A stretch of DNA of 64,000 nucleotides from a virus. Taxonomy: Duplodnaviria > Caudoviricetes. Below the pieces are notes generated by a model. The model saw only the letters and a list, made by a program, of their open reading frames with translations, was not told where the DNA came from and searched no databases. The position numbers and the translations under genes are program-made. Below, piece after piece: positions 10,403 through 33,177 of the stretch. The stretch covers positions 32,001 to 96,000 of IMG/VR virus record IMGVR_UViG_651703056_000001. The stretch is one strand, 5' to 3'. The stretch's first letter is position 1. Each line of letters begins with the position of its first letter.

Positions 10403-10475
10403 GGCTCTTTAGCTTAATTGGTAAAGTCCTCCGCCCATAACGGAGTAAGTGCAGGTTCAAGCCCTGCAAGAGCCA
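10403..10475 (+). tRNA. tRNA-CAT (Ile2 or elongator Met)
   Basis: GGCTCTT/AAGAGCC acceptor, CTCCG-CCCATAA-CGGAG anticodon arm, GCAGG-TTCAAGC-CCTGC T arm; no encoded CCA. Confidence 0.85.
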
Positions 10476-10523
10476 TTCCCTAAAAGGAAAATAGACAGAT
10501 AGATAGAAAGAGAGGTACTAACC

Positions 10524-10754
10524 ATGATTTTAAAATATGGAGTACATAATGGCAAAGGAGAAACCGTTGTTTGTATCGTAGACAACATCACAAGTGTAGA
10601 GGAGATTGAAGGAAGTAATGCCCCAATCTTCCATCATGAACGAGGAGAGAAACCTCGAACATACTTTGGAGATATCCTTGATAATAAAGAAATTATCTTT
10701 ATGTATTTGATGAATGATGATTTCAAAACAATTAAGATTTATAAGAAGGCTTAA
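10524..10754 (+). CDS. Hypothetical phage protein
   Basis: GAGGT RBS; YLMND..KTI C-terminal motif. Confidence 0.7.
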   Translation: MILKYGVHNGKGETVVCIVDNITSVEEIEGSNAPIFHHERGEKPRTYFGDILDNKEIIFMYLMNDDFKTIKIYKKA

Positions 10755-10756
10755 AC

Positions 10757-11128
10757 ATGAAACGTATAAAAACACAGACTGTATCATTTGATGTAGATGA
10801 AGTGAAAGCATTGACAGGTTTTACTTTAAAAAACTCATGGGGAAACTATATTCTTGAACATGAAAAATATGGAATTGTCCATGACATGCTTGAAGATGAA
10901 GATGATGAATCTTTTACAGAAAATAGTCTGTTTAATTATTACATGACTGAGTTAGAAGATACCCTAAGACATTATGTTTATCAAAACTTTAGTTATGATT
11001 ATGCTCATATCGTACAAAATGGTCGATTCGAGTATGCTACTCGTGAATTTACTGTTCAATTCCATTCTGATAATAAAGTTACAGTATATTTTATCCTCGA
11101 AGAAGGTTACTCTTTGGAGATAACTTAA
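10757..11128 (+). CDS. Hypothetical phage protein
   Basis: Coupled ORF. Confidence 0.7.
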   Translation: MKRIKTQTVSFDVDEVKALTGFTLKNSWGNYILEHEKYGIVHDMLEDEDDESFTENSLFNYYMTELEDTLRHYVYQNFSYDYAHIVQNGRFEYATREFTVQFHSDNKVTVYFILEEGYSLEIT

Positions 11129-11176
11129 TTTACTTTTTATTTTATTGCTTTTGAATATAATATGTAAGGAGAAAAT

Positions 11177-11371
11177 ATGGACACAACAACTGCATTAAAG
11201 ATAACAGTAACGGCTGTGATTGGGTATATCTTTGAGTATGGATGGTATAAGAGTGTCGAGTGGATTTCTGAATGGAATTATACATGTGGAATGATATGGT
11301 TATTAGCGACATTTGCAATACAGTTATTTTTAGTTCTTAGATTTATGGATGATTTTCTTGATTTATTTTAA
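11177..11371 (+). CDS. Small membrane protein
   Basis: AAGGAG RBS; two hydrophobic segments. Confidence 0.65.
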   Translation: MDTTTALKITVTAVIGYIFEYGWYKSVEWISEWNYTCGMIWLLATFAIQLFLVLRFMDDFLDLF

Positions 11372-11380
11372 AGTTTATGC

Positions 11381-11409
11381 TTGACAAATAATAAATAATA
11401 TGGTATAAT
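11381..11409 (+). promoter_or_regulatory. Sigma70-type promoter
   Basis: TTGACA-17-TATAAT with TG. Confidence 0.85.
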
Positions 11410-11434
11410 ATACATATAACGTAAGGAGAGAAAC

Positions 11435-11647
11435 ATGGAAGATAAATATACCGACATAGTAGTTCGTACAACACTTATAAACATAATTACAGTTCCAGAA
11501 GAAGTCGCTCATGATAGAGATTTGGTTGATGATTTTGTGGAGAAGTTTGGAAAAACAAAAGAAGTGCTGGATACAGATAACATAGAAACTGATGTCTTAG
11601 AGTACTGGTTTGAGGATGAATATGGACATGAACATCGACATTATTGA
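11435..11647 (+). CDS. Hypothetical acidic protein
   Basis: AAGGAG RBS. Confidence 0.7.
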   Translation: MEDKYTDIVVRTTLINIITVPEEVAHDRDLVDDFVEKFGKTKEVLDTDNIETDVLEYWFEDEYGHEHRHY

Positions 11648-11661
11648 GAGGAAGTTTGACT

Positions 11662-11907
11662 ATGAATTTAAAAATTAAAATTACAGTATCTTATTCAAGG
11701 TATGACATGGATGATTTTAATGACGGTAGCAAAATAGACTTTGTAGTCGACATACCAATGAAACGCACCAAGAACAAAGATAAGTTAATAGAAGATATAT
11801 CTTGTTTTTGTAGTGAAACAGCAAAAAGTTTGCTTATTGCAAATGATATTGAGTTCAGAGAATATATGATTCGGACTGAATATTTAGAAAAATCAACGCC
11901 AGTATAA
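11662..11907 (+). CDS. Hypothetical phage protein
   Basis: ATG 11662 with GAGGA RBS. Confidence 0.6.
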   Translation: MNLKIKITVSYSRYDMDDFNDGSKIDFVVDIPMKRTKNKDKLIEDISCFCSETAKSLLIANDIEFREYMIRTEYLEKSTPV

Positions 11908-11934
11908 AATAATTAAAAAAATTCAACTTTATGC

Positions 11935-11963
11935 TTGACATTATATCTGAAATGTGGTATAAT
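11935..11963 (+). promoter_or_regulatory. Sigma70-type promoter for tRNA-Arg and HNH gene
   Basis: TTGACA-17-TATAAT with TG. Confidence 0.85.
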
Positions 11964-11985
11964 ATTAATATAGAGTTGATAATAA

Positions 11986-12058
11986 GTTCGGTTAGTGTAA
12001 TTGGATAACACACATAATTTCTAATTATGTACTCTGGATTCGAGTTCCAGACTGAGCA
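11986..12058 (+). tRNA. tRNA-Arg(TCT)
   Basis: CATAA-TTTCTAA-TTATG anticodon arm; GTTCGGT/ACTGAGC acceptor; CTGGA-TTCGAGT-TCCAG T arm. Confidence 0.8.
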
Positions 12059-12130
12059 TTGTGTATGAAAACCTCCACCAAAAAATAAAAGAGGAAATTG
12101 CAAAAGGACACAGTTTGCAGAGGAATACAC

Positions 12131-12619
12131 ATGGAATGGAAAACAATAAACTTTATTTATGGTTTTGAAAACCTTTATGAGGTAAACAAACTTGGACAAG
12201 TTAGAAGAATTGATTCTCAAAAAATATTAAAGCCAACGCTAAATAATACTGGGTATCATACAGTTCATCTATCTAGCGGGAAAAAGAGAAAAAGAATTGG
12301 TATCTCTATATTAGTTGCTAAAGCATTTATTCCTAATCCTGAGAATAAGCCAGAGGTTGACCATATTGATACTAATAGAACAAACAACCATATATCTAAT
12401 TTAAGATGGGTTACTCGTCAAGAGAACATGGATAACCCATTGACATTAAAACATCTTGAAGTCAACAAAGGAAATAAATATTCCGATAAAGGATATAGAG
12501 ATGATATATTAAGTTTGAGAGAAAAAGGTATGTCATATGATGAAATAGCTAAAACTCTTAATTGTTCTAAATCTACCGTCCATTACCACATCAAAGGTAA
12601 AGGAAACGAAAATAATTAA
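12131..12619 (+). CDS. NUMOD4-HNH homing endonuclease with C-terminal HTH
   Basis: EWK...YEVN..G.VR (NUMOD4); VDHIDTNRTNNHISNLRWVT..EN (HNH); MSYDEIAKTLNCSKSTV (HTH). Confidence 0.9.
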   Translation: MEWKTINFIYGFENLYEVNKLGQVRRIDSQKILKPTLNNTGYHTVHLSSGKKRKRIGISILVAKAFIPNPENKPEVDHIDTNRTNNHISNLRWVTRQENMDNPLTLKHLEVNKGNKYSDKGYRDDILSLREKGMSYDEIAKTLNCSKSTVHYHIKGKGNENN

Positions 12620-12637
12620 AGTATAATTACTTTATAC

Positions 12638-12666
12638 TTGACAAACATTAAACAATATGTTATAAT
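12638..12666 (+). promoter_or_regulatory. Sigma70-type promoter of the RNA-gene cluster
   Basis: TTGACA-17-TATAAT with TG; followed by ~1.27 kb without a long ORF. Confidence 0.85.
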
Positions 12667-12687
12667 AGTATATAGTGATTATTAAAT

Positions 12688-12838
12688 GAAATAGAGTGCG
12701 AGGTCAGTCATATTATTATGATAGTGGACTGAATGACTAGAGTAAAAAGACTAACAATCTTCTAGTCTTAGAATAGGCAAGTTCCGTTCAATGTCTCCCA
12801 AGATTCGGCTGGAGAGACCGAGAAGACAGCTTTATTTC
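12688..12838 (+). ncRNA. Structured RNA of unknown class
   Basis: Closing stem GAAATAGAGT/GCTTTATTTC; inner stems CAGTC/GACTG, AAGACTA/TAGTCTT, GTCTC/GAGAC. Confidence 0.45.
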
Positions 12839-12842
12839 TAAA

Positions 12843-12915
12843 GATTCATTGGTGTAGTGGTTATCACGCTTGCCTGTCACGCAAGAGAACAGGGGTTCGA
12901 ATCCCCTATGAATCG
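12843..12915 (+). tRNA. tRNA-Asp(GTC)
   Basis: GATTCAT/ATGAATC acceptor; CTTGC-CTGTCAC-GCAAG; AGGGG-TTCGAAT-CCCCT; G73. Confidence 0.93.
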
Positions 12916-13027
12916 TAGATGATATAGATGATAATTACATTATTGCAATTAATTATTTATATCATCAAGTCCATAGTAAGGCAATCACATTTCATGTGAT
13001 ATTGTTTACGACATTGGGCGAAATTTT

Positions 13028-13115
13028 ATCGAGTTAGCTCAATGGTAGAGGCGATGACGGTGTACACCGTAAAAACGGGAGGTCATAGACAGAGGTTCGA
13101 TTCCTCTACTCGCTG
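13028..13115 (+). ncRNA. tRNA-like RNA with 23-nt anticodon loop
   Basis: Normal D arm (TAGCTCAATGGTAGAG), ATGAC/GTCAT stem around a 23-nt loop, AGAGG-TTCGATT-CCTCT T arm. Confidence 0.7.
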
Positions 13116-13116
13116 T

Positions 13117-13197
13117 AATTAACTGAGGACGGAACAGGCAACCGTCACACCCTAGTGGTTTAAAGAGATGTGGGAAATGTCACCCCACCAGTTAATT
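13117..13197 (+). ncRNA. Degenerate tRNA-like element
   Basis: AATTAACTG/CAGTTAATT stem, GACGG/CCGTC D-like hairpin, GTGGG/CCCAC stem with non-canonical loop. Confidence 0.4.
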
Positions 13198-13200
13198 TAA

Positions 13201-13267
13201 AACAAGTCTGCTTATGTATCTTAAATGATATACTGATTAGATTAGGGTTGGATTCCCTAACTTGTTA
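13201..13267 (+). ncRNA. D-armless tRNA-like RNA
   Basis: AACAAGT/ACTTGTT acceptor stacked on TAGGG-TTGGATT-CCCTA T arm; one central hairpin. Confidence 0.6.
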
Positions 13268-13462
13268 TAGATAAGATAGTAACACGAGTCTTATCGTCCC
13301 TCGCGGATGAAATCTGGCGAGCTATCAAAATTTGAGGTGCTTAGGAAAATAATAAAGATAGTCCTAATTGTTAAATGAGTAAAGCTATCCAAGTCGACAG
13401 TAACTAACAGCCCTTTATTTATTATATGTCAGTGAATCTTTAACGTAGCTGGTATATAATAA

Positions 13463-13534
13463 CAGGATATGGTGTTAATGGTAGCATGCGTGTTTTGGGA
13501 ACATGTAGTGCTGGTTCGAGTCCAGCTATCCTGA
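13463..13534 (+). tRNA. tRNA-Pro(TGG)
   Basis: CAGGATA/TATCCTG acceptor; CGTGT-TTTGGGA-ACATG; GCTGG-TTCGAGT-CCAGC. Confidence 0.92.
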
Positions 13535-13701
13535 TGAGTGGTGTATAGTCCACGAAGTGCTAAGCTATTGCGCAGTACCTTGGCTCAACTATACAAGAAC
13601 CATATTGAACATAACTGGTGCATGGTTATTAGGATATGGGGTTAGTTAACGGAAGACCTAGTGTATTAAAGTGTCACAGGCTTAATTAAGTGACAGCTGA
13701 T

Positions 13702-13758
13702 TAGAGTAACAGGTGTGCTAACGTATATTGCGAGAGGCTCGATTCCTCTCTGCTCTGT
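13702..13758 (+). ncRNA. Miniature D-armless tRNA-like RNA
   Basis: TAGAGTA/TGCTCTG acceptor, GAGAGG-CTCGATT-CCTCTC T arm, GTGTGC-TAAC-GTATAT hairpin. Confidence 0.55.
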
Positions 13759-13765
13759 TGAGGGA

Positions 13766-13818
13766 GCATAAACCTGGCGAAAAGTTATGTGGAGGAATGA
13801 ACCTGGCGAAAAATTCAT
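13766..13818 (+). repeat. Two tandem hairpins sharing loop sequence ACCTGGCGAAAA
   Basis: GCATAA-ACCTGGCGAAAAG-TTATGT and ATGAA-CCTGGCGAAAAA-TTCAT. Confidence 0.7.
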
Positions 13819-13875
13819 CTGATATTATGGTTAAATAAAGGACGCTTTATGTTGGTTCGATTCCAACTATCGGAT
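13818..13875 (+). ncRNA. Miniature D-armless tRNA-like RNA
   Basis: TCTGATA/TATCGGA acceptor, GTTGG-TTCGATT-CCAAC T arm, ATAAAG-GACG-CTTTAT hairpin. Confidence 0.65.
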
Positions 13876-13936
13876 ATAGGTGTTGCTTATTCACCGTATA
13901 ATAAGCTAGAAAAGTAAGTATAGTAGGTAAATAAAA

Positions 13937-14452
13937 ATGACAAATCCAATTCTAATCAAAGAATTAAGTTTTCAACTTAAGGAATACCGAGATATCTTAA
14001 CAGATATTATTAAGTTATCTGCACGTTCTGATGACCAAGCAAATTCAGCTAAAAATATATTATTTCAAATATTTTATCATACAGAATGGATGATTCAAAT
14101 GTATGCTGGTAATTATGAAGAAAAACCACATAGAGATTCCGAAGATTTAAGTTTCAAAGAGGGAAAAGTTTCTCAAAATATTGTAAAATATATTATGGAC
14201 AACTTCAAAGGTATTCCACTCACAGAAGAAGGTTTGAGTAAGTTGACTAATAAAGAAAAAGAATTTTTAAAACCTTTCGAAGACCTAGTATCTATCACCC
14301 ACAGAATGATAAGGGCTGTTGTGGATTATTCAGATAGTCATTCTGAAAGTAAAACCATAGACAGAACAGATGCACAACCTCTTAGTATTTTATATTTCAT
14401 TGATTCACTAAAAGAAAGAACGACTTATGCTATGGAAAAAGAAGTCTACTAA
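13937..14452 (+). CDS. Hypothetical protein embedded in the RNA cluster
   Basis: 171-aa ORF with AGGT RBS. Confidence 0.7.
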   Translation: MTNPILIKELSFQLKEYRDILTDIIKLSARSDDQANSAKNILFQIFYHTEWMIQMYAGNYEEKPHRDSEDLSFKEGKVSQNIVKYIMDNFKGIPLTEEGLSKLTNKEKEFLKPFEDLVSITHRMIRAVVDYSDSHSESKTIDRTDAQPLSILYFIDSLKERTTYAMEKEVY

Positions 14453-14454
14453 AT

Positions 14455-14858
14455 TAGGTGACTCATTACAGTTAGATTAGGCGTATGATATTATCCTTTG
14501 GTTTAAATCCATAAAGACAGAGCATAAAGCTCGACTGTGTGTCTATTGCGTGCAATAGATGACGGTTATATCTTGATACAATTAAAAGGAACTTTGAGTA
14601 GTTCGCCTTTATGGAAATGGGTTGTTAGTGTATACCGCAAAATAAAACTATCTGTATCCGTTACTCTTGACGATATAAGAAGCTTAAAATCATGTTTGGT
14701 CTTTGCATATCCTTCCTAAAGACTAAGGTGTACCGATTGACGGTACTTAAATGTCATAGAGTTGACAGCCAAGCAGAGGGTGCATAGCATAGAAGCGAAT
14801 CTAGGGAGCTATAAGTTAAATGATACAGCCAAACAGAAACCGAAACTAACAGCTCTTT
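14455..14858 (+). ncRNA. Candidate large structured RNA
   Basis: No credible ORF; many hairpins (GTCTATTGC/GCAATAGAT, TAAAGG..CCTTTA, GTACCG/CGGTAC, GAGCT/AGCTC). Confidence 0.45.
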
Positions 14859-14865
14859 GCATAGT

Positions 14866-14936
14866 GCGAACATAGTATAGTGGTAATGCTACAGACTCTA
14901 AGTATGTAAACGTAGGTTCGATTCCTACTGTTCGTA
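14866..14936 (+). tRNA. tRNA with CTA anticodon (amber suppressor-like, Gly-like body)
   Basis: GCGAACA/TGTTCGT acceptor; ACAGA-CTCTAAG-TATGT (one G.A mismatch); GTAGG-TTCGATT-CCTAC. Confidence 0.65.
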
Positions 14937-14992
14937 TATCAGTACCTTATCCGCTTAAGTAGAAATACAGCGCATTAGATAAGGGCGATTGA

Positions 14993-15064
14993 ATCCGTTT
15001 AGTGTAGTGGTTAACACATCAGATTCCAAACCTGATAACGTGGGTTCGATTCCTACAATGGATG
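14993..15064 (+). tRNA. tRNA-Trp(CCA)
   Basis: ATCCGTT/AATGGAT acceptor; TCAGA-TTCCAAA-CCTGA; G73. Confidence 0.85.
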
Positions 15065-15069
15065 TTTTA

Positions 15070-15272
15070 TATGTGTGCAAGTCTCTCGTAAGGGAGATGG
15101 TGTTAAATGAGGAAGATGTCCGACAGCCATATAAAAACAACACACCAAAATACGACTCTATATAGTATTTTGGCTGGCAATCTTGGTGGTAATCGTTATA
15201 GGGACGGTAAGTCCGAAAATGATAGGGAAGGTGTTGTATGCCTATCTGCGAGAGTGTTCAAGAAACTCTCAT
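15070..15272 (+). ncRNA. Candidate structured RNA between tRNA-Trp and tRNA-Met
   Basis: Hairpins GTCTCTC/GGGAGAT, CCAAAATAC/GTATTTTGG, GGAC/GTCC, GATAGG/CCTATC, GAGAGT/ACTCTC. Confidence 0.5.
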
Positions 15273-15277
15273 TTTAT

Positions 15278-15349
15278 ACAGGGTGGGTGGCAAGGCGTCA
15301 CGCTAGTTTCATAAGCTAGAATAGAACGGTTCGATTCCGTTACCTTGAA
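15278..15349 (+). tRNA. tRNA-Met(CAT), initiator-like
   Basis: 1:72 mismatch (ACAGGGT/ACCTTGA); CTAGT-TTCATAA-GCTAG; AACGG-TTCGATT-CCGTT; lacks the three G-C anticodon-stem pairs. Confidence 0.8.
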
Positions 15350-15480
15350 TATTGCTGAAAAGTAAGAACCGACTGTCCGAAATATATCAATATAGAAGTC
15401 TACGGTATAGAAAACGTTCATAAGGGTGTGATTGTTCCGTATGGGAACTTGACCATAAGTTGCTCGTTAACCCTTAGCCA

Positions 15481-15547
15481 GAAAGAGTGGTCTAATGTAA
15501 GACACTTGAAATTTCAAGAGTTGTGAGTTCAAATCTCATCTCTTTCA
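15481..15547 (+). ncRNA. tRNA-like RNA lacking an anticodon loop
   Basis: Perfect GAAAGAG/CTCTTTC acceptor, GTCT/AGAC D stem, CTTGA-AATT-TCAAG arm with 4-nt loop, GTGAG-TTCAAAT-CTCAT T arm. Confidence 0.75.
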
Positions 15548-15735: not shown

Positions 15736-17041
15736 TTTAATTTAAAATATTATTACTTAGGAAAGAAGGAGGTAGGATAGTGTCCACACACAAAATTGCT
15801 CAGAAAATACCTTTTAAACCAACAAAGAAACAAGTGAAGTTCTTTAAGGATTGTTTTGGTGCAAGAAGATTTGCATATAATAGTCAAGTTGCTGTATTCA
15901 ATACCTACTCAGAAGAAAATAAAGATTTGACCTATCCTAAAATTACAGACCTAAAACGTGAGAATGAATGGTTGAAAACAAGTGTTGTTCCAGCTCATAG
16001 TCTGTCTAATGCGCTCATGGACTTCGGAAAAGCTCGGACGGCTTACTTCAAAAAAGCCAATTATGGTAAAAATCGTCCAAGCTTTCATAGTCGTCATGAT
16101 TATATTCAATCATTTAGAAATGGAATGCCATTCAAAACAATACGTGAAAATGGAAGATACCAACTTTCAAAGAAACTAGGCTACATTAAAATTCGAAAAC
16201 GTGATAAACTACGCTACCCAATTGAACAAATGACACAATGGACGATTAAGCGTGAAGGAGAAAAATACTATATTATTTTCTTGTTCACGGTTGAAATTGA
16301 AACACGACCTGAAATCACAGGCTCAGTTGGTATAGACCTCGGTATTAAAGATTTTGCAATAACATCAGACGGTGAAAAGATTGACCTACCTAAATCTCTT
16401 GGAGAGTTGGAAGCCAAAGTCATAAAAGAACAGCGTAAACTCTCACGTAAACAAAAAGGGAAAGGTAAGCAGTCGAACAACTTCTATAAGCAAAAAGCCA
16501 AGTTACAAAAGGCTCATGCAAAAATACGCCATGTTCGTGAGAATTTCCAACATCATGTTTCAAAACAGCTGATTGAAGAAAACCAATTCATCGCTATTGA
16601 GACATTGAGACCATCCAACATGATTAAGAACCACAAGCTGGCACGTTATATAGCAAGAGCCAGCTGGCGACAGTTCACAAATCAGCTAGAATATAAAGCG
16701 GATTGGTATGGAAGAACTTTACAAAAGGTGGGAACATACTATCCAAGTTCAAAAACTTGCGGAAATTGTGGGAATATCTATCACAATTTGAAGCTCTCAG
16801 AACGGGAGTGGACGTGCGCTAAATGTGGTACTTATCATGATAGAGACCTTAATGCAAGTCAAAATATCCTCAAAGAAGCACAACGATTAGCTTCTTAAAA
16901 TATTTGTAATCGTTAAAGAACCGACCGACAATCGGGGATAGCTCACTCCATATAGGCGACCTCTGGCACGAGGAAACAAATCCGAAGCTAAGTGTACCTA
17001 GTTCGTGAGAATCACGGCACTTTAATGCCGTGAGTGTTCAA
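15736..17041 (+). mobile_element. IS1341-like tnpB-only element (left end uncertain)
   Basis: tnpB plus IS605-type right end; no tnpA and no clear left-end hairpin. Confidence 0.7.
15780..16898 (+). CDS. tnpB: TnpB RNA-guided endonuclease (IS200/IS605 family, no TnpA)
   Basis: N-terminal HTH (FG.RRFAYN), RuvC-I GIDLG, RuvC-II IAIETL, Zn finger CGNC..CAKC, RuvC-III DRDLNA; AAGGAGGT RBS. Confidence 0.95.
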   Translation: MSTHKIAQKIPFKPTKKQVKFFKDCFGARRFAYNSQVAVFNTYSEENKDLTYPKITDLKRENEWLKTSVVPAHSLSNALMDFGKARTAYFKKANYGKNRPSFHSRHDYIQSFRNGMPFKTIRENGRYQLSKKLGYIKIRKRDKLRYPIEQMTQWTIKREGEKYYIIFLFTVEIETRPEITGSVGIDLGIKDFAITSDGEKIDLPKSLGELEAKVIKEQRKLSRKQKGKGKQSNNFYKQKAKLQKAHAKIRHVRENFQHHVSKQLIEENQFIAIETLRPSNMIKNHKLARYIARASWRQFTNQLEYKADWYGRTLQKVGTYYPSSKTCGNCGNIYHNLKLSEREWTCAKCGTYHDRDLNASQNILKEAQRLAS

Positions 17042-17061
17042 CTCTTGACAAACTCATTTGA
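16899..17061 (+). ncRNA. TnpB omega/reRNA scaffold, right end and guide
   Basis: Subterminal hairpin TCACGGCA/TGCCGTGA (17012-17033), TTCAA end (17037-17041), guide = flank from 17042. Confidence 0.75.
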
Positions 17062-17073
17062 TTATGATATAAT
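17045..17073 (+). promoter_or_regulatory. Sigma70-type promoter
   Basis: TTGACA-17-TATAAT with TG. Confidence 0.85.
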
Positions 17074-17111
17074 AATATATGTAAGTTAAAAAAACGTAAG
17101 GAGAACATAAT

Positions 17112-17219
17112 ATGGGGTGCATAATTCCGATTGTATTGATTTTAATATTTCTAGCAAATCCAGTTCTGGGTTTAGTCGCAACGGTTATTGTATTAGCAAT
17201 AGCAAGTCTTAAAAAATAA
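17112..17219 (+). CDS. 35-aa hydrophobic peptide (not in ORF track)
   Basis: AAGGAG RBS; MGCIIPIVLILIFLANPVLGLVATVIVLAIASLKK. Confidence 0.7.
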   Translation: MGCIIPIVLILIFLANPVLGLVATVIVLAIASLKK

Positions 17220-17233
17220 GGAGAATAAACACA

Positions 17234-17890
17234 ATGACACAAAGTAAAACACTCACAGTACAAGAAGCGCTTAATGAACTTAAAGTTCTTGACAAACGTA
17301 TTGAACGTAAACTTGGCGACACTAAATATGTAGGTGTTGTTCAAGAAGACAAACTTGTTTATCCTGCATCATCAAAAGGTGATAAAGATAAATTCATTTC
17401 AGACGCAAAATCTAGTATTGATTCATTACTTGATTTGATTGCTTACCGTCATGCTTTGAAAGCTGGTGTATTGCGTTCTAATGCGTTAACAGAAGTTGTA
17501 ATTGGAGACAAAACAATGACAGTTGCAGAGGCAATTGATTATAAAACTTCAATCCAAAGTGAAAAAGATTTGGTTCAAACTCTCGTTAATGATTTGACCC
17601 AAGCGACAACTAAGATGACACGTATTAATGAGGATATTGATAAGACTCTTGAAAAGAAACAAAATAGTTTGTTAAGCTCAGATAAAGATGATAAAAATCC
17701 TGATATTATTAAATTCTTGAAAGAACAAGCTGAGAGCGAAAAAGCAACAGTTCTTGAATTGGAAGTTGGTAAAGCTATTGTAAGTGATTACACTAAAGCT
17801 AAACTTGATTCAATTGAACAATTTGAACAAACAGTTGATTTCAAGTTAACTGCATCAAATGTTTCAACAGAAATTACCGTTGAGTGGTAA
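17234..17890 (+). CDS. Coiled-coil protein of unknown function
   Basis: AAGGAG RBS; internal repeat LTVQEAL / MTVAEAI; long amphipathic helices; C-terminal VD..L..SN..T.I. Confidence 0.85.
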   Translation: MTQSKTLTVQEALNELKVLDKRIERKLGDTKYVGVVQEDKLVYPASSKGDKDKFISDAKSSIDSLLDLIAYRHALKAGVLRSNALTEVVIGDKTMTVAEAIDYKTSIQSEKDLVQTLVNDLTQATTKMTRINEDIDKTLEKKQNSLLSSDKDDKNPDIIKFLKEQAESEKATVLELEVGKAIVSDYTKAKLDSIEQFEQTVDFKLTASNVSTEITVEW

Positions 17891-17905
17891 TAATTAAGTT
17901 ATAAT

Positions 17906-18267
17906 CATGTTATGACGAACAACTTAAAGTATAGATTTCCAGACAGTTTTGTTGAAAGATTCTTATGACTGGAAATAAAATATTAAATATAATGAATCTT
18001 TAAAAAACTATAAAAGAATATACTAGAAGTCTCTCTTGGAGACAATTATCAATTTTGATTGGCATAGAGACCTCTCAAAATTGATAAAGATGACTAATAG
18101 ATTATAGTTTAAAGCTCATGCTTTATAGCTTAGAGTTTATATCTTATATTGGATAATGAATCCAGTTATAGATTAAGTTTGAGGGGTTAAGTTTTCTTAA
18201 AAATCCTAGAGTTACGTTTTGTGACTTTCTATATCAGTTTGGTTGTACGCTAGGCTGTCATAACATG
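17906..18267 (+). ncRNA. Ornate ~360-nt RNA with heptamer tract
   Basis: Perfect 11-bp closing stem CATGTTATGAC/GTCATAACATG, 13-bp internal stem, pseudoknot-type complementarity, 7-nt repeats, then terminator. Confidence 0.7.
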
Positions 18268-18270
18268 GTA

Positions 18271-18305
18271 AAATAAGGACTACTTCGGTAGTTCTTATTT
18301 TTTTT
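18271..18305 (+). terminator. Intrinsic terminator
   Basis: AAATAAGGACTAC-TTCG-GTAGTTCTTATTT plus T-run. Confidence 0.9.
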
Positions 18306-18316
18306 ATACTTTTCTC

Positions 18317-31677: not shown

Positions 31678-33177
31678 TTGACAGTCACAAAGATTGAAAC
31701 AAAAGAATCAGTAACACCAGAGTATTTTATGCTCAACAACCAACTAAATATCATTAAAGATGGTAAAATTCAGTTGAACGCAGACAGAGAAGCTGTCCAT
31801 AGCTATTTCATTGATTACGTAAATCCACATACAGTCTATTTTGGAGACTTGCGTGAGAAGCTCGACTATTTAGTGAAACATAAGTATATCAAAGGCGAAG
31901 TGCTTGATAAATATACTTTCAAATTTATTAAAAAATTATTTAAAACTCTATATGATAAAAAGTTTAGATTCACAACTTTCATGGGTGCGTATAAGTTTTA
32001 TACACAGTATGCTATGCACACAACAGATGGAAAATCAATTCTTGAACGATATGAAGACCGTATTGCTTTTAATGCCTTAGTTATGGCTGATGGCGATGAG
32101 CAATTGGCTCTCAACATTGCAAATGAAATGATTTCACAAACCTATCAACCTGCAACACCAACATTTTCTAATGCTGGTAAATTGCGTGGGGGTAATGCTG
32201 TATCATGTTTCCTCTTGAATATTGAAGATAATATGACTTCTATCGGACGCTCAGTAAACTCAGTTCTTCAATTATCTAAAATGGGTGGTGGAGTTGCAGG
32301 TACAACTGTGGCTTTATATCTTGCTCGTGCAGGATTTGAACCTGTCCTATTGACAGATGGTGAAATTGGTGGAAATCTTAATTCTATTGATACTATTCAA
32401 AATTACGTTGGAATTTATAACGCAAAAGGTAGTGATATTACAGAAGCAATTCGCTGTCAACTTTATCAAGCTGGATGTGATATGGGTAGCAATATTAAAG
32501 AAGATACTAAAGTCACTAATGTTTCTAAAGATAAGAATGGTATTTATCTGATTACGTATGAAGACCTTTTAGGTGATGAGAGTACTATTCTGTCTAAAAA
32601 CCTTGTCATTGCAACAGGTCAGCATAACCTTAAACTTCCAATTGATGTGGAACAGCACAACTGTGTTTTATGTGATGGTTTTATGTTTAAAGGTGAACCA
32701 GTAGTTGTAATTGGTGGTGGAAATTCTGCTTTAACAGAAGCAATCGAACTAGCTAAAACATCAAGTAAAGTTTATCTCGTTACACGTAGACCTGAGTTCC
32801 GTGCAGAACAACACTTACAAAATGAAATCAAAGAACATGATAACATTGTTCATTCAGTAGGCAATCTTAAATCGGTAGTTGGTGATTCATATATTTTTGA
32901 TACCCACACACTTATTGCAAAAGGGCTTTTTGTTTACATTGGCTCAAAACCTAATACACAGTTTATGGAAGACGAATTAATTCTAACAGATAGCGGACAT
33001 ATTGATACAATGGGTTATAATGCTTTGGTTGGTGTTAAAGGTAGTCGCCACATGGATATTGACCGTAATTTATATGTTGTTGGAGATGTGAATGGTTCAG
33101 TTGAAGCAAAACAATTTGGTATTGCAATTGGTCAAGCCACAGAGGTTGCAGTTCAGCTTATTAAAAAATTGTCATAA
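31678..33177 (+). CDS. Chimera: NrdE N-terminus (~200 aa) fused in frame to thioredoxin reductase
   Basis: NrdE motifs YKFY..YA, LERYEDR, PATPTF.NAG, SCFLL, LQLSK.GGG; then TrxB motifs GGGVAG, IATG, CVLCDG, VIGGGNSA, GDV. Confidence 0.88.
   Translation: MTVTKIETKESVTPEYFMLNNQLNIIKDGKIQLNADREAVHSYFIDYVNPHTVYFGDLREKLDYLVKHKYIKGEVLDKYTFKFIKKLFKTLYDKKFRFTTFMGAYKFYTQYAMHTTDGKSILERYEDRIAFNALVMADGDEQLALNIANEMISQTYQPATPTFSNAGKLRGGNAVSCFLLNIEDNMTSIGRSVNSVLQLSKMGGGVAGTTVALYLARAGFEPVLLTDGEIGGNLNSIDTIQNYVGIYNAKGSDITEAIRCQLYQAGCDMGSNIKEDTKVTNVSKDKNGIYLITYEDLLGDESTILSKNLVIATGQHNLKLPIDVEQHNCVLCDGFMFKGEPVVVIGGGNSALTEAIELAKTSSKVYLVTRRPEFRAEQHLQNEIKEHDNIVHSVGNLKSVVGDSYIFDTHTLIAKGLFVYIGSKPNTQFMEDELILTDSGHIDTMGYNALVGVKGSRHMDIDRNLYVVGDVNGSVEAKQFGIAIGQATEVAVQLIKKLS

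Follow-up and report, generated by a model that had tools for sequence, protein, structure and literature searches.

Directly downstream of a gene for a 218-amino-acid (aa) helical protein, and on the same strand, a phage of the Lactococcus 949 group (genus Audreyjarvisvirus) carries a structured RNA of 366 nucleotides (nt), and the two appear to belong together. The stretch that was analysed, referred to below as the window, comprises 64,000 nt of a 114,768-base virus record (IMG/VR record IMGVR_UViG_651703056_000001, positions 32,001 to 96,000); coordinates are those of the window and all features of the pair lie on its + strand. Judging from comparative sequence analysis, a conserved pseudoknotted + strand RNA is genetically locked to a conserved protein; the two have been inherited as a pair in thousands of diverged phage lineages, and the pair occurs on its own in Bacillus chromosomes. 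With somewhat better than even confidence, we regard positions 17234-18308 as a two-part module that acts as a ribonucleoprotein and is composed of a gene for a helical protein of ~210 aa and a structured RNA of 281-402 nt, measured from one arm of its closing stem to the other. We infer that protein and RNA bind physically.

The RNA of the window extends from 17904 to 18269. An earlier sequence-only reading of this DNA had placed an 11-bp closing stem around the region (17906-17916/18257-18267); this stem, which we call P1, is indeed present and can be extended to 13 bp (17904-17916/18257-18269). The 5' arm of P1 is followed by a conserved GA and the 5' strand of a second long-range helix, P2 (together 17917-17924), in which ACAACU (17919-17924) pairs with GGUUGU (18241-18246). 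The GAA(A)AC motif found here is nearly invariant across 35 aligned RNAs. Then comes a 5' hairpin pseudoknot (17936-18001), the TTTCCAG/CTGGAAA stem of which (17936-17942/17969-17975) carries the loop sequence AAAGATTC (17955-17962) that pairs with GAATCTTT (17994-18001). Both the stem and the downstream pairing of its loop had been proposed before, and the pairing is compensated in relatives: inspection of the alignment by eye showed CAGAGGTTC/GAACTTCTG at the corresponding sites of the six other 949-group phages. A variable insert with lineage-specific hairpins (18002-18097; hairpins 18031-18045 and 18046-18058/18075-18087) leads to a tract of tandem heptamers (18101-18199), which is split into 18101-18149 and 18165-18199 by a small TGGAT/ATCCA hairpin (18150-18164). 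The 3' domain (18200-18256) consists of AAAAUCC, the 5' strand CCUAG (18205-18209) of a short helix named Pa, an inner hairpin, the 3' strand of P2, the bases ACG, the 3' strand CUAGG (18250-18254) of Pa and a final CU. A predicted hairpin AGAGTTAC/GTGACTTT is present as well (18208-18228). Since the 5' strand of Pa lies between the two strands of P2, and its 3' strand after both, P2 and Pa form a second pseudoknot. The 3' arm of P1 (18257-18269) is immediately followed by an intrinsic terminator (18270-18308), the hairpin of which (18270-18301; 14-pair stem, UUCG loop, followed by a T run) had been recognized as strong from the sequence. The whole stretch 17891-18316 lacks open reading frames (ORFs) of at least 30 aa, and RNAfold gave a z-score of -6.2 relative to shuffled sequences on either strand. 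Most of the features that had been read from the sequence are present, and the principal ones exceed what chance would produce.

Within the 949 group the conservation of the pair is uneven. The stretch 17045-18305 has ~90% identity in 19 of the 20 matching phage records, and the 20th match, PMBT69, is a single distant Lactococcus relative with 64% identity over the same stretch. A comparison by block between the window and six 949-group relatives gave 97.1% identity for the heptamer tract plus 3' domain (18098-18269), 95.4% for the gene of the 218-aa protein (89.5% at third codon positions), 94.4% for the terminator and 88.4% for the 5' domain of the RNA. The block 17986-18097 is only 50% identical and the relatives bear a different hairpin in it, which identifies the perfect 13-bp stem at 18046-18058/18075-18087 as a lineage-specific insert. 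The existence of that stem had thus been read correctly from the sequence, but the contact proposed between its loop and an upstream segment (AGAGAC/GTCTCT), which falls in the variable part, is not supported. By this measure the RNA outside its variable middle is under purifying selection. PMBT69 retains the RNA with compensated changes in both P1 and P2. A scan with 16-mers detected 949-group phages only, apart from one chance match in a coding sequence (L099).

The family of the protein reaches much further. Relatives are encoded in 292 stretches of IMG/VR and in 717 phage records, which include T5-like phages of Salmonella and Escherichia, phages of Vibrio, Pseudomonas and Klebsiella, and Bacillus phages up to phage G. 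A profile search against 1.84 billion representative sequences (clustered at 50% identity) yielded 3,483 matches at E <= 0.001, with 1,551 of them at E <= 1e-30; in the 150 best of the 3,483 matches the protein length is ~202-222 aa. Distant homologues show ~30-37% identity; they come from T5-like phages, from phages of Vibrio and Bacillus, from metagenomic phages and also from Bacillus chromosomes. In most of these distant loci the gene is followed by an ORF-free gap of 290-690 nt, left unannotated for instance in Vibrio phage Thalassa (362 nt), Bacillus phage BCP8-2 (504 nt) and Salmonella phage rutana (443 nt).

The architecture of the RNA recurs in nearly all of the distant homologues. P1 measures 7-20 bp, begins 5-56 nt after the stop codon and has a different sequence in every lineage, and it is again followed by the conserved GA and by a P2 5' strand with the consensus AAACNNN. 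Of 45 distant RNAs, 29 contain an equivalent of the 5' pseudoknot that scores at least 11, compared with a mean of 6.1 in the control. The heptamer array has the consensus YUCAARN and about 6-13 tandem units. Its periodicity, noted from the sequence of the window alone, holds across 44 homologous tracts: lags of 7, 14 and 21 give autocorrelations of 0.447, 0.431 and 0.394, as against 0.30 in shuffles, and a 7-nt spacing is found in 204 intervals. The 3' domain keeps the order AAAUCC-NNN, inner hairpin, 3' strand of P2, three bases, NNN-GG, CU and P1 3' arm, in which the Pa helix takes the form CCNNN/NNNGG followed by GGCU. The closing stem, pseudoknots and repeats, the conservation of which downstream of homologous genes had been put forward as a check on the original proposal, therefore recur in distant loci.

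The association holds in both directions. A strict Pa pattern (CCNNN...NNNGGCUG), placed 210-390 nt after the stop codon, was found in 50 of the 77 loci with a distant homologue, and flanking positions that did not form part of the pattern proved conserved too; among the other 27 loci, 19 have P1 together with GAAA/GC(U/A) flanks. A covariance model, R1, was built from 34 sequences for the 80-position 3' domain only. It has a single match in the 64-kb window (18183-18258, 41.5 bits, E 6.7e-6), and it matches 76 of the 93 sources that encode the protein, each once and always on the + strand at the distance expected; 34 of these matches are the seed sequences and 42 lie outside the seed. Eleven of the 17 sources that were missed by R1 carry P1 and its flanks according to a script. 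Conversely, R1 produced three matches in 83 other loci (697 kb of viral DNA), each directly 3' of a gene for the protein and on the same strand. As a control, a loose pattern (GATAAAATCC-N38-60-GGCUG) was searched in IMG/VR, and the matches listed were mostly due to chance: among 80 of them Pa was complementary in four, and Pa and P1 together in one, which was BCP8-2 itself. The stretch of gene plus RNA is matched by 441 T5-like records, nearly all with at least 90% identity; the coverage is 80% or more in 438 of them. As a separate observation, an annotated homing endonuclease gene splits this stretch in two in the T5-like phages falkor and bobsandoy. In the chromosomes of the Bacillus pumilus and Bacillus licheniformis groups the gene and a shorter RNA are kept in all ten loci; in one of them (L229) the pair lies between housekeeping genes, namely those for homocysteine methyltransferase, an amino-acid permease and a subtilase.

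The helices themselves are supported by covariation. Using a tool-made alignment of 35 full RNAs, we scored P1 (9 pairs), P2 (7 pairs) and Pa (5 pairs). Overall, 88.1% of the cells are paired, whereas shuffling lowers the value to 59.1% and sliding the partners to 34-42%, and the covariation score of 0.761 (versus 0.194) was reached by none of 500 shuffles. In P1 97.1% of the cells are paired and eight of the nine pairs show changes on both sides; for Pa the figure is 98.9%, with three of the five pairs covarying. For P2 in a fixed sequence register we counted 168 Watson-Crick, 29 G·U, 12 A·C and 43 other combinations, against 81, 17, 35 and 119, respectively, in a slid control. For P1, identified with a strand-symmetric finder to which G·U and A·C are equally acceptable, the counts were 653 Watson-Crick, 81 G·U and 18 A·C. 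The strong excess of G·U over A·C indicates that an RNA is read from the + strand, the strand of the gene, and weighs against a DNA element. The earlier judgement that the region holds far more than a 3' untranslated region (UTR) needs is thereby borne out: two long-range helices, two pseudoknots and a heptamer array are present, all of them with covariation.

The protein can be assigned to a family, though not to a function. The 218-aa ORF (17234-17890) had been delimited correctly, and its product matches the phrog_1491 profile over its full length (E 3.4e-68; residues 4-218 on positions 2-211 of 211); no Pfam family was found above threshold, and NCBIfam and the ESM Atlas likewise gave no family. 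The AlphaFold model is confident (pLDDT, the predicted local distance difference test, 87.6; pTM, the predicted template modelling score, 0.65) and has five helices, one of 52 residues, with short strands at the helix ends. A single structure, 3KDQ (DIP1984) from Corynebacterium diphtheriae, stands out among the structural matches and was the best by three methods: a hidden Markov model comparison, in which the SNAxT...TVAEAI block aligned with an E-value of 0.074, Foldseek (E 0.014 at a probability of 0.98) and VIA-align (Z 10.4 compared with 7.8 for the runner-up; root-mean-square deviation of 10.3 over 150 of the 152 residues). The high deviation means that the match is one of topology. In addition, 3KDQ is shorter (152 versus 218 aa), has 14-19% identity and, unlike the 218-aa protein, is accompanied by no known RNA. 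RefSeq uses the product name 'tail fiber protein' for hundreds of phrog_1491 records (e.g. L001, L106, L107 and L108). This label is probably wrong, since the gene sits among tRNAs and replication genes and the predicted fold is a helical bundle like that of 3KDQ.

The genomic context of the RNA points to tRNAs. Within 2.5 kb of the gene tRNAs were found at 42 of the 60 loci scanned, all on the strand of the gene. In T5-like phages the region that holds the tRNAs can be dispensed with under laboratory conditions. In 9 of 45 distinct RNAs a tRNA begins 5-12 nt after the 3' arm of P1, and in 7 of the 45 a terminator-like hairpin follows within 45 nt, as in the window. In one locus (L030, 3487-3548) a match to the twister-P1 model starts one base past the end of the RNA (3486) with 41.3 bits and an E-value of 5e-6, below the gathering score of 67.2; this twister-P1-like element may cut the RNA free. 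Just past the 3' end of the RNA in another locus (L061, 3488-3567) there is a match to the model of transfer-messenger RNA (tmRNA) at 48.4 bits (gathering score 47), with most of the model skipped, which probably represents a tRNA-like element. The variable site itself holds whole tRNAs in two loci (L032 and L046). In three others it contains tRNA-like modules with matches to the YrlA (Y RNA-like) model, all below the gathering score of 69 (L080, 1621-1730, 35 bits, E 2.8e-4; L059, 3204-3328, 33.4 bits; L053, 3197-3252, 27.4 bits); in these modules the 3' half of a tRNA precedes the 5' half and a small hairpin caps the acceptor end.

On the basis of these features, the following course of events can be envisaged. 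The RNA would be transcribed as the tail of the protein mRNA from a promoter at 17045 and be freed as a discrete, stable RNA, the 3' end of which would be set by the terminator in the window, by the RNase P cut at an abutting tRNA in other phages and by a twister-like ribozyme in one. In the conserved fold, P1 and P2 join the two ends of the RNA and Pa locks onto P2; the heptamer array looks single-stranded. The protein may dock on the junction formed by P1, GA, P2 and GGCU or on the heptamer array, and the variable site may display lineage-specific cargo, such as the tRNA-like modules. Because the pair usually lies inside phage tRNA arrays, tRNA handling, or a tRNA-centred form of host take-over or counter-defence, is the most likely field, and the function is possibly tRNA-related. 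The roles suggested in the sequence-only reading, a toxin/RNA-antitoxin pair or counter-defence, are speculation. The heptamer YUCAARN fits both the T-loop (UUCRA) and the anticodon-loop (YU-NNN-RN) patterns, which we take as a lead and not as a finding. A more elaborate scheme, which we offer tentatively and consider unlikely to be right in full, would see a widespread phage ribonucleoprotein in which an oligomer with the DIP1984 fold reads a heptad-repeat track on a double-pseudoknot scaffold. It would form a tRNA-mimicking platform that decoys tRNA-targeting defences or tRNA-modifying enzymes, or that manages the phage tRNA pool, and the domesticated Bacillus copies would reverse this use.

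Several observations weigh against a ribonucleoprotein of this kind. The protein family is acidic (mean isoelectric point 5.4 and net charge -5 for 23 members), an uncommon property for an RNA-coating protein, and its only structural relative, 3KDQ, lacks a known function. Six of the 93 protein-positive sources (L058, L069, L091, L092, L096 and L237) show no RNA by either R1 or the script; the sequence of L058 stops just after the gene and L237 carries an early stop. P2 pairs in just 68.6% of the cells at fixed alignment columns, because its register varies between lineages. The statistics of P1 and Pa are inflated, since the sequences were picked partly by the pairing of those helices; P2, which was not used in the selection, and the 42 R1 matches outside the seed are the independent checks. 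The contigs from RNA libraries (wastewater and others) that map to the window derive from relatives, cover gene and RNA alike and may be DNA, and their depth does not rank the parts. Finally, none of the five Bacillus loci tested has tRNAs near the pair. A tRNA-centred function is therefore not obligatory, and the retention of the pair in chromosomes without tRNA neighbours indicates a self-contained, movable unit. Separately, we noted in run X1 a depth spike over 18107-18173 that is not interpretable.

The sequence-only reading had recognized no named family in the RNA. For the window this stands, as Rfam yielded zero families at E <= 1, but for the 5' end of a relative it does not. RAGATH-27 (RF03100), an 86-nt orphan 'sRNA' family, matches a locus from a Blautia metagenome-assembled genome (L238, 3153-3235) at 78.2 bits versus a gathering score of 76.1. 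The match lies right after the gene for the homologous protein and corresponds exactly to the P1 5' arm, GAAAAC and the 5' hairpin. The consensus of the family includes CGAAAACUUuAAACUA, and its motif ...CGAAAAC(N3)AAAC... plus hairpin recurs in the window as GACGAACAACUUAAAG followed by the hairpin at 17936-17975. Nevertheless, the model missed 24 of 26 sources, including the window, and reached only 37.4 bits in L061. It describes the 5' quarter of the RNA with one hairpin and lacks the partner protein, the heptamer array and the 3' domain. Its 'unpaired' 5' half corresponds to strands of P1 and P2, the partners of which lie ~300 nt away. On these sequence grounds, RAGATH-27 is a narrow and partial model of the 5' end of the RNA in one sublineage. 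The name was not found in the literature searched, and the 2017 motif paper (PMC5737381), in the supplements of which the family may be described, does not mention 'RAGATH' in its main text. Another orphan motif located 3' of a protein gene, RAGATH-18, proved to be the partner RNA of the upstream IS607 TnpB, according to PMC11061315; TnpB is an RNA-guided nuclease, whereas the 218-aa protein is small, acidic and helical and has no nuclease match. Literature searches found no description of the RNA or of the pair in T5-like, 949-group or other phages, and none of the terms 'orf109', 'intergenic', 'non-coding' and 'origin of replication' occurs in the PhiL47 paper. The complete RNA, like the protein that accompanies it, appears to be undescribed so far.

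The strongest rival to a ribonucleoprotein is an RNA that acts alone, either as an RNA-only assembly or as a heptamer sponge for a host RNA-binding factor or enzyme, next to a protein that does not bind it and is just a neighbour sharing its transcription or regulation; we consider this possible, though not probable. The acidic nature of the protein would agree with it, and the heptamer array resembles a multivalent binding track. There are also precedents: GOLLD and ROOL are described as large structured RNAs of unknown function that often occur in phages and prophages beside tRNA genes (PMC5737381) and that have no known protein partner (PMC5737381; 10.1101/2024.12.08.627333). The present RNA differs from these two in being smaller, in being tied to one protein family and in having a heptamer array, and neither the window region nor any of 25 related loci was matched at E <= 1 by the Rfam models of GOLLD and ROOL. 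In addition, the coupling of gene and RNA is very tight, in both directions and across extreme divergence, and the pair persists on its own in Bacillus chromosomes. A link by plain co-transcription should have been lost more frequently. Phage K of Staphylococcus (L109 and L110) also has two abundant long non-coding RNAs beside tRNAs, as reported in PMC9241854. We considered these as candidates for the same RNA, but they seem to be different, because the upstream gp233 is unrelated to the phrog_1491 family (hhalign probability 0.1); moreover, no shared motif was seen by eye.

A second possibility, improbable in our view, is an arrangement similar to that of Y RNA and Ro, in which the protein would bind the closing helix and its conserved bulged junction, and the interior modules, some of them tRNA-like, would recruit RNAs or nucleases for RNA surveillance or decay. 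Like the YrlA Y RNA with its Ro/Rsr protein, the RNA has ends that pair in a conserved stem (here with a fixed unpaired GA and GGCU), has a gene adjacent to that of its protein with tRNAs close by, and in some lineages has a tRNA-like module. However, the adjacent protein has no Pfam match, and a Ro-type (TROVE) protein is not evident beside the RNA. The YrlA-like matches of L080, L059 and L053 are below threshold and lineage-specific, and the window has no such module.

Other known RNAs were compared as well. The tmRNA, which functions with the small partner protein SmpB, has an overall layout similar to that of the RNA described here: it, too, is closed by a stem, contains a further long helix and pseudoknots, has a central tract that is single-stranded and is found in a tRNA context. 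Neither ARAGORN nor Rfam detected a tmRNA in the window. Unlike in tmRNA, neither conserved acceptor features nor a CCA are seen in P1, and the heptamer tract contains stop codons in all frames. RNase P RNA and group I introns, suggested by the layout, were rejected, as Rfam gave no matches and the order of the helices differs from that in those RNAs. A role of the heptamers in slippery frameshifting, or as a reading frame, was likewise rejected, given the period of 7 and a consensus that departs from X XXY YYZ.

We see very little room for a toxin-antitoxin or abortive module of the type III kind, in which a toxic protein would be neutralized by a repeat RNA. It is true that a protein gene is found beside a tandem-repeat RNA and that stand-alone copies exist in Bacillus. 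PADLOC reports a weak AbiQ match for the protein of the window (E 0.0087, 14.4 bits), with none for two relatives, and no ToxN/AbiQ-type fold was found among the structural matches listed. However, ToxI repeats are about 34-36 nt long and precede the toxin gene, whereas the repeats seen here are 7 nt long, are part of a large fold and lie 3' of the protein gene. Moreover, no nuclease-like match was found for the protein, which is acidic and helical, and the module is carried mainly by virulent phages. Just as remote is the idea that the region is a DNA element (an iteron origin served by the upstream protein) or a cis-acting, mRNA-stabilizing 3' UTR: the AT-rich sequence, the tandem short repeats, the adjacent conserved gene and the similar z-scores on both strands would fit it, but helices that span more than 300 nt covary, G·U exceeds A·C on the + strand, tRNAs or terminators abut the 3' arm of P1, the region is kept in Bacillus chromosomes, a repeat of 7 bp does not keep phase with the turns of the DNA helix and the RNA is much more elaborate than known 3' stabilizers.

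The transcription unit has two further parts, a promoter and a small ORF. The promoter that had been proposed at 17045 is present (17045-17073) and is of the sigma-70 type, with TTGACA, a spacing of 17 nt and TATAAT preceded by an extended TG; it agrees with the consensus at 12 of 12 positions and is 96.5% identical in the six 949-group phages. A hydrophobic ORF of 35 aa (phrog_9039) is found at 17112-17219, as had been annotated from the sequence, and lies inside the transcription unit of this phage. It was not found in PMBT69, and a small hydrophobic ORF was absent from all 85 distinct upstream regions of distant loci. By its distribution, the 35-aa membrane peptide is thus specific to the 949 group and outside the conserved module. 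The sequence-only reading had joined peptide, protein and RNA into one unit; in distant phages and in Bacillus chromosomes that unit holds for the gene of the 218-aa protein and the RNA, but not for the peptide.

On its 5' side the pair is preceded by an array of seven tRNAs (10403-15350, according to ARAGORN) and then by a TnpB gene (15780-16898), and on its 3' side the genes for two topoisomerase II subunits follow. The TnpB gene, situated between the tRNA array and the unit, encodes Cas12f1-like TNB, OrfB_IS605 and helix-turn-helix domains and is followed by ~140 nt of non-coding sequence (together 15780-17040). The element was apparently inserted in this phage only, since phage AM4 has just 666 nt between the homologous flanking genes; its presumed guide RNA gave zero Rfam matches. 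One member of the tRNA array (14865-14937; 55.7 bits with the Rfam tRNA model) has the anticodon CTA and would read the amber codon UAG. ARAGORN labels it 'tRNA-Pyl', and it is possibly a suppressor tRNA in a phage. Stop-codon-reading tRNAs are also present in L052 and L081. A further tRNA called by Rfam (15481-15547, 53.1 bits) is absent from the ARAGORN list, and its anticodon-loop region is shortened in the alignment. In PMBT69 (L002) a skipping-rope RNA (RF02924, 75.8 bits) is found at 377-455, directly 3' of a tRNA-Asp in the tRNA array.

The recognition of this pair bears on a large protein family that includes members from T5-like model phages and that is misleadingly labelled in the databases, and the partner RNA of which is unannotated save for an 86-nt orphan motif. 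A pseudoknotted RNA of ~300-400 nt with periodic heptamers and an obligate protein would be a new entry among the few large RNAs of bacteria and phages. The module sits in tRNA arrays, the role of which in the conflict between phage and host is actively studied, and it would be directly testable in T5-like phages and in strains of the Bacillus pumilus group.

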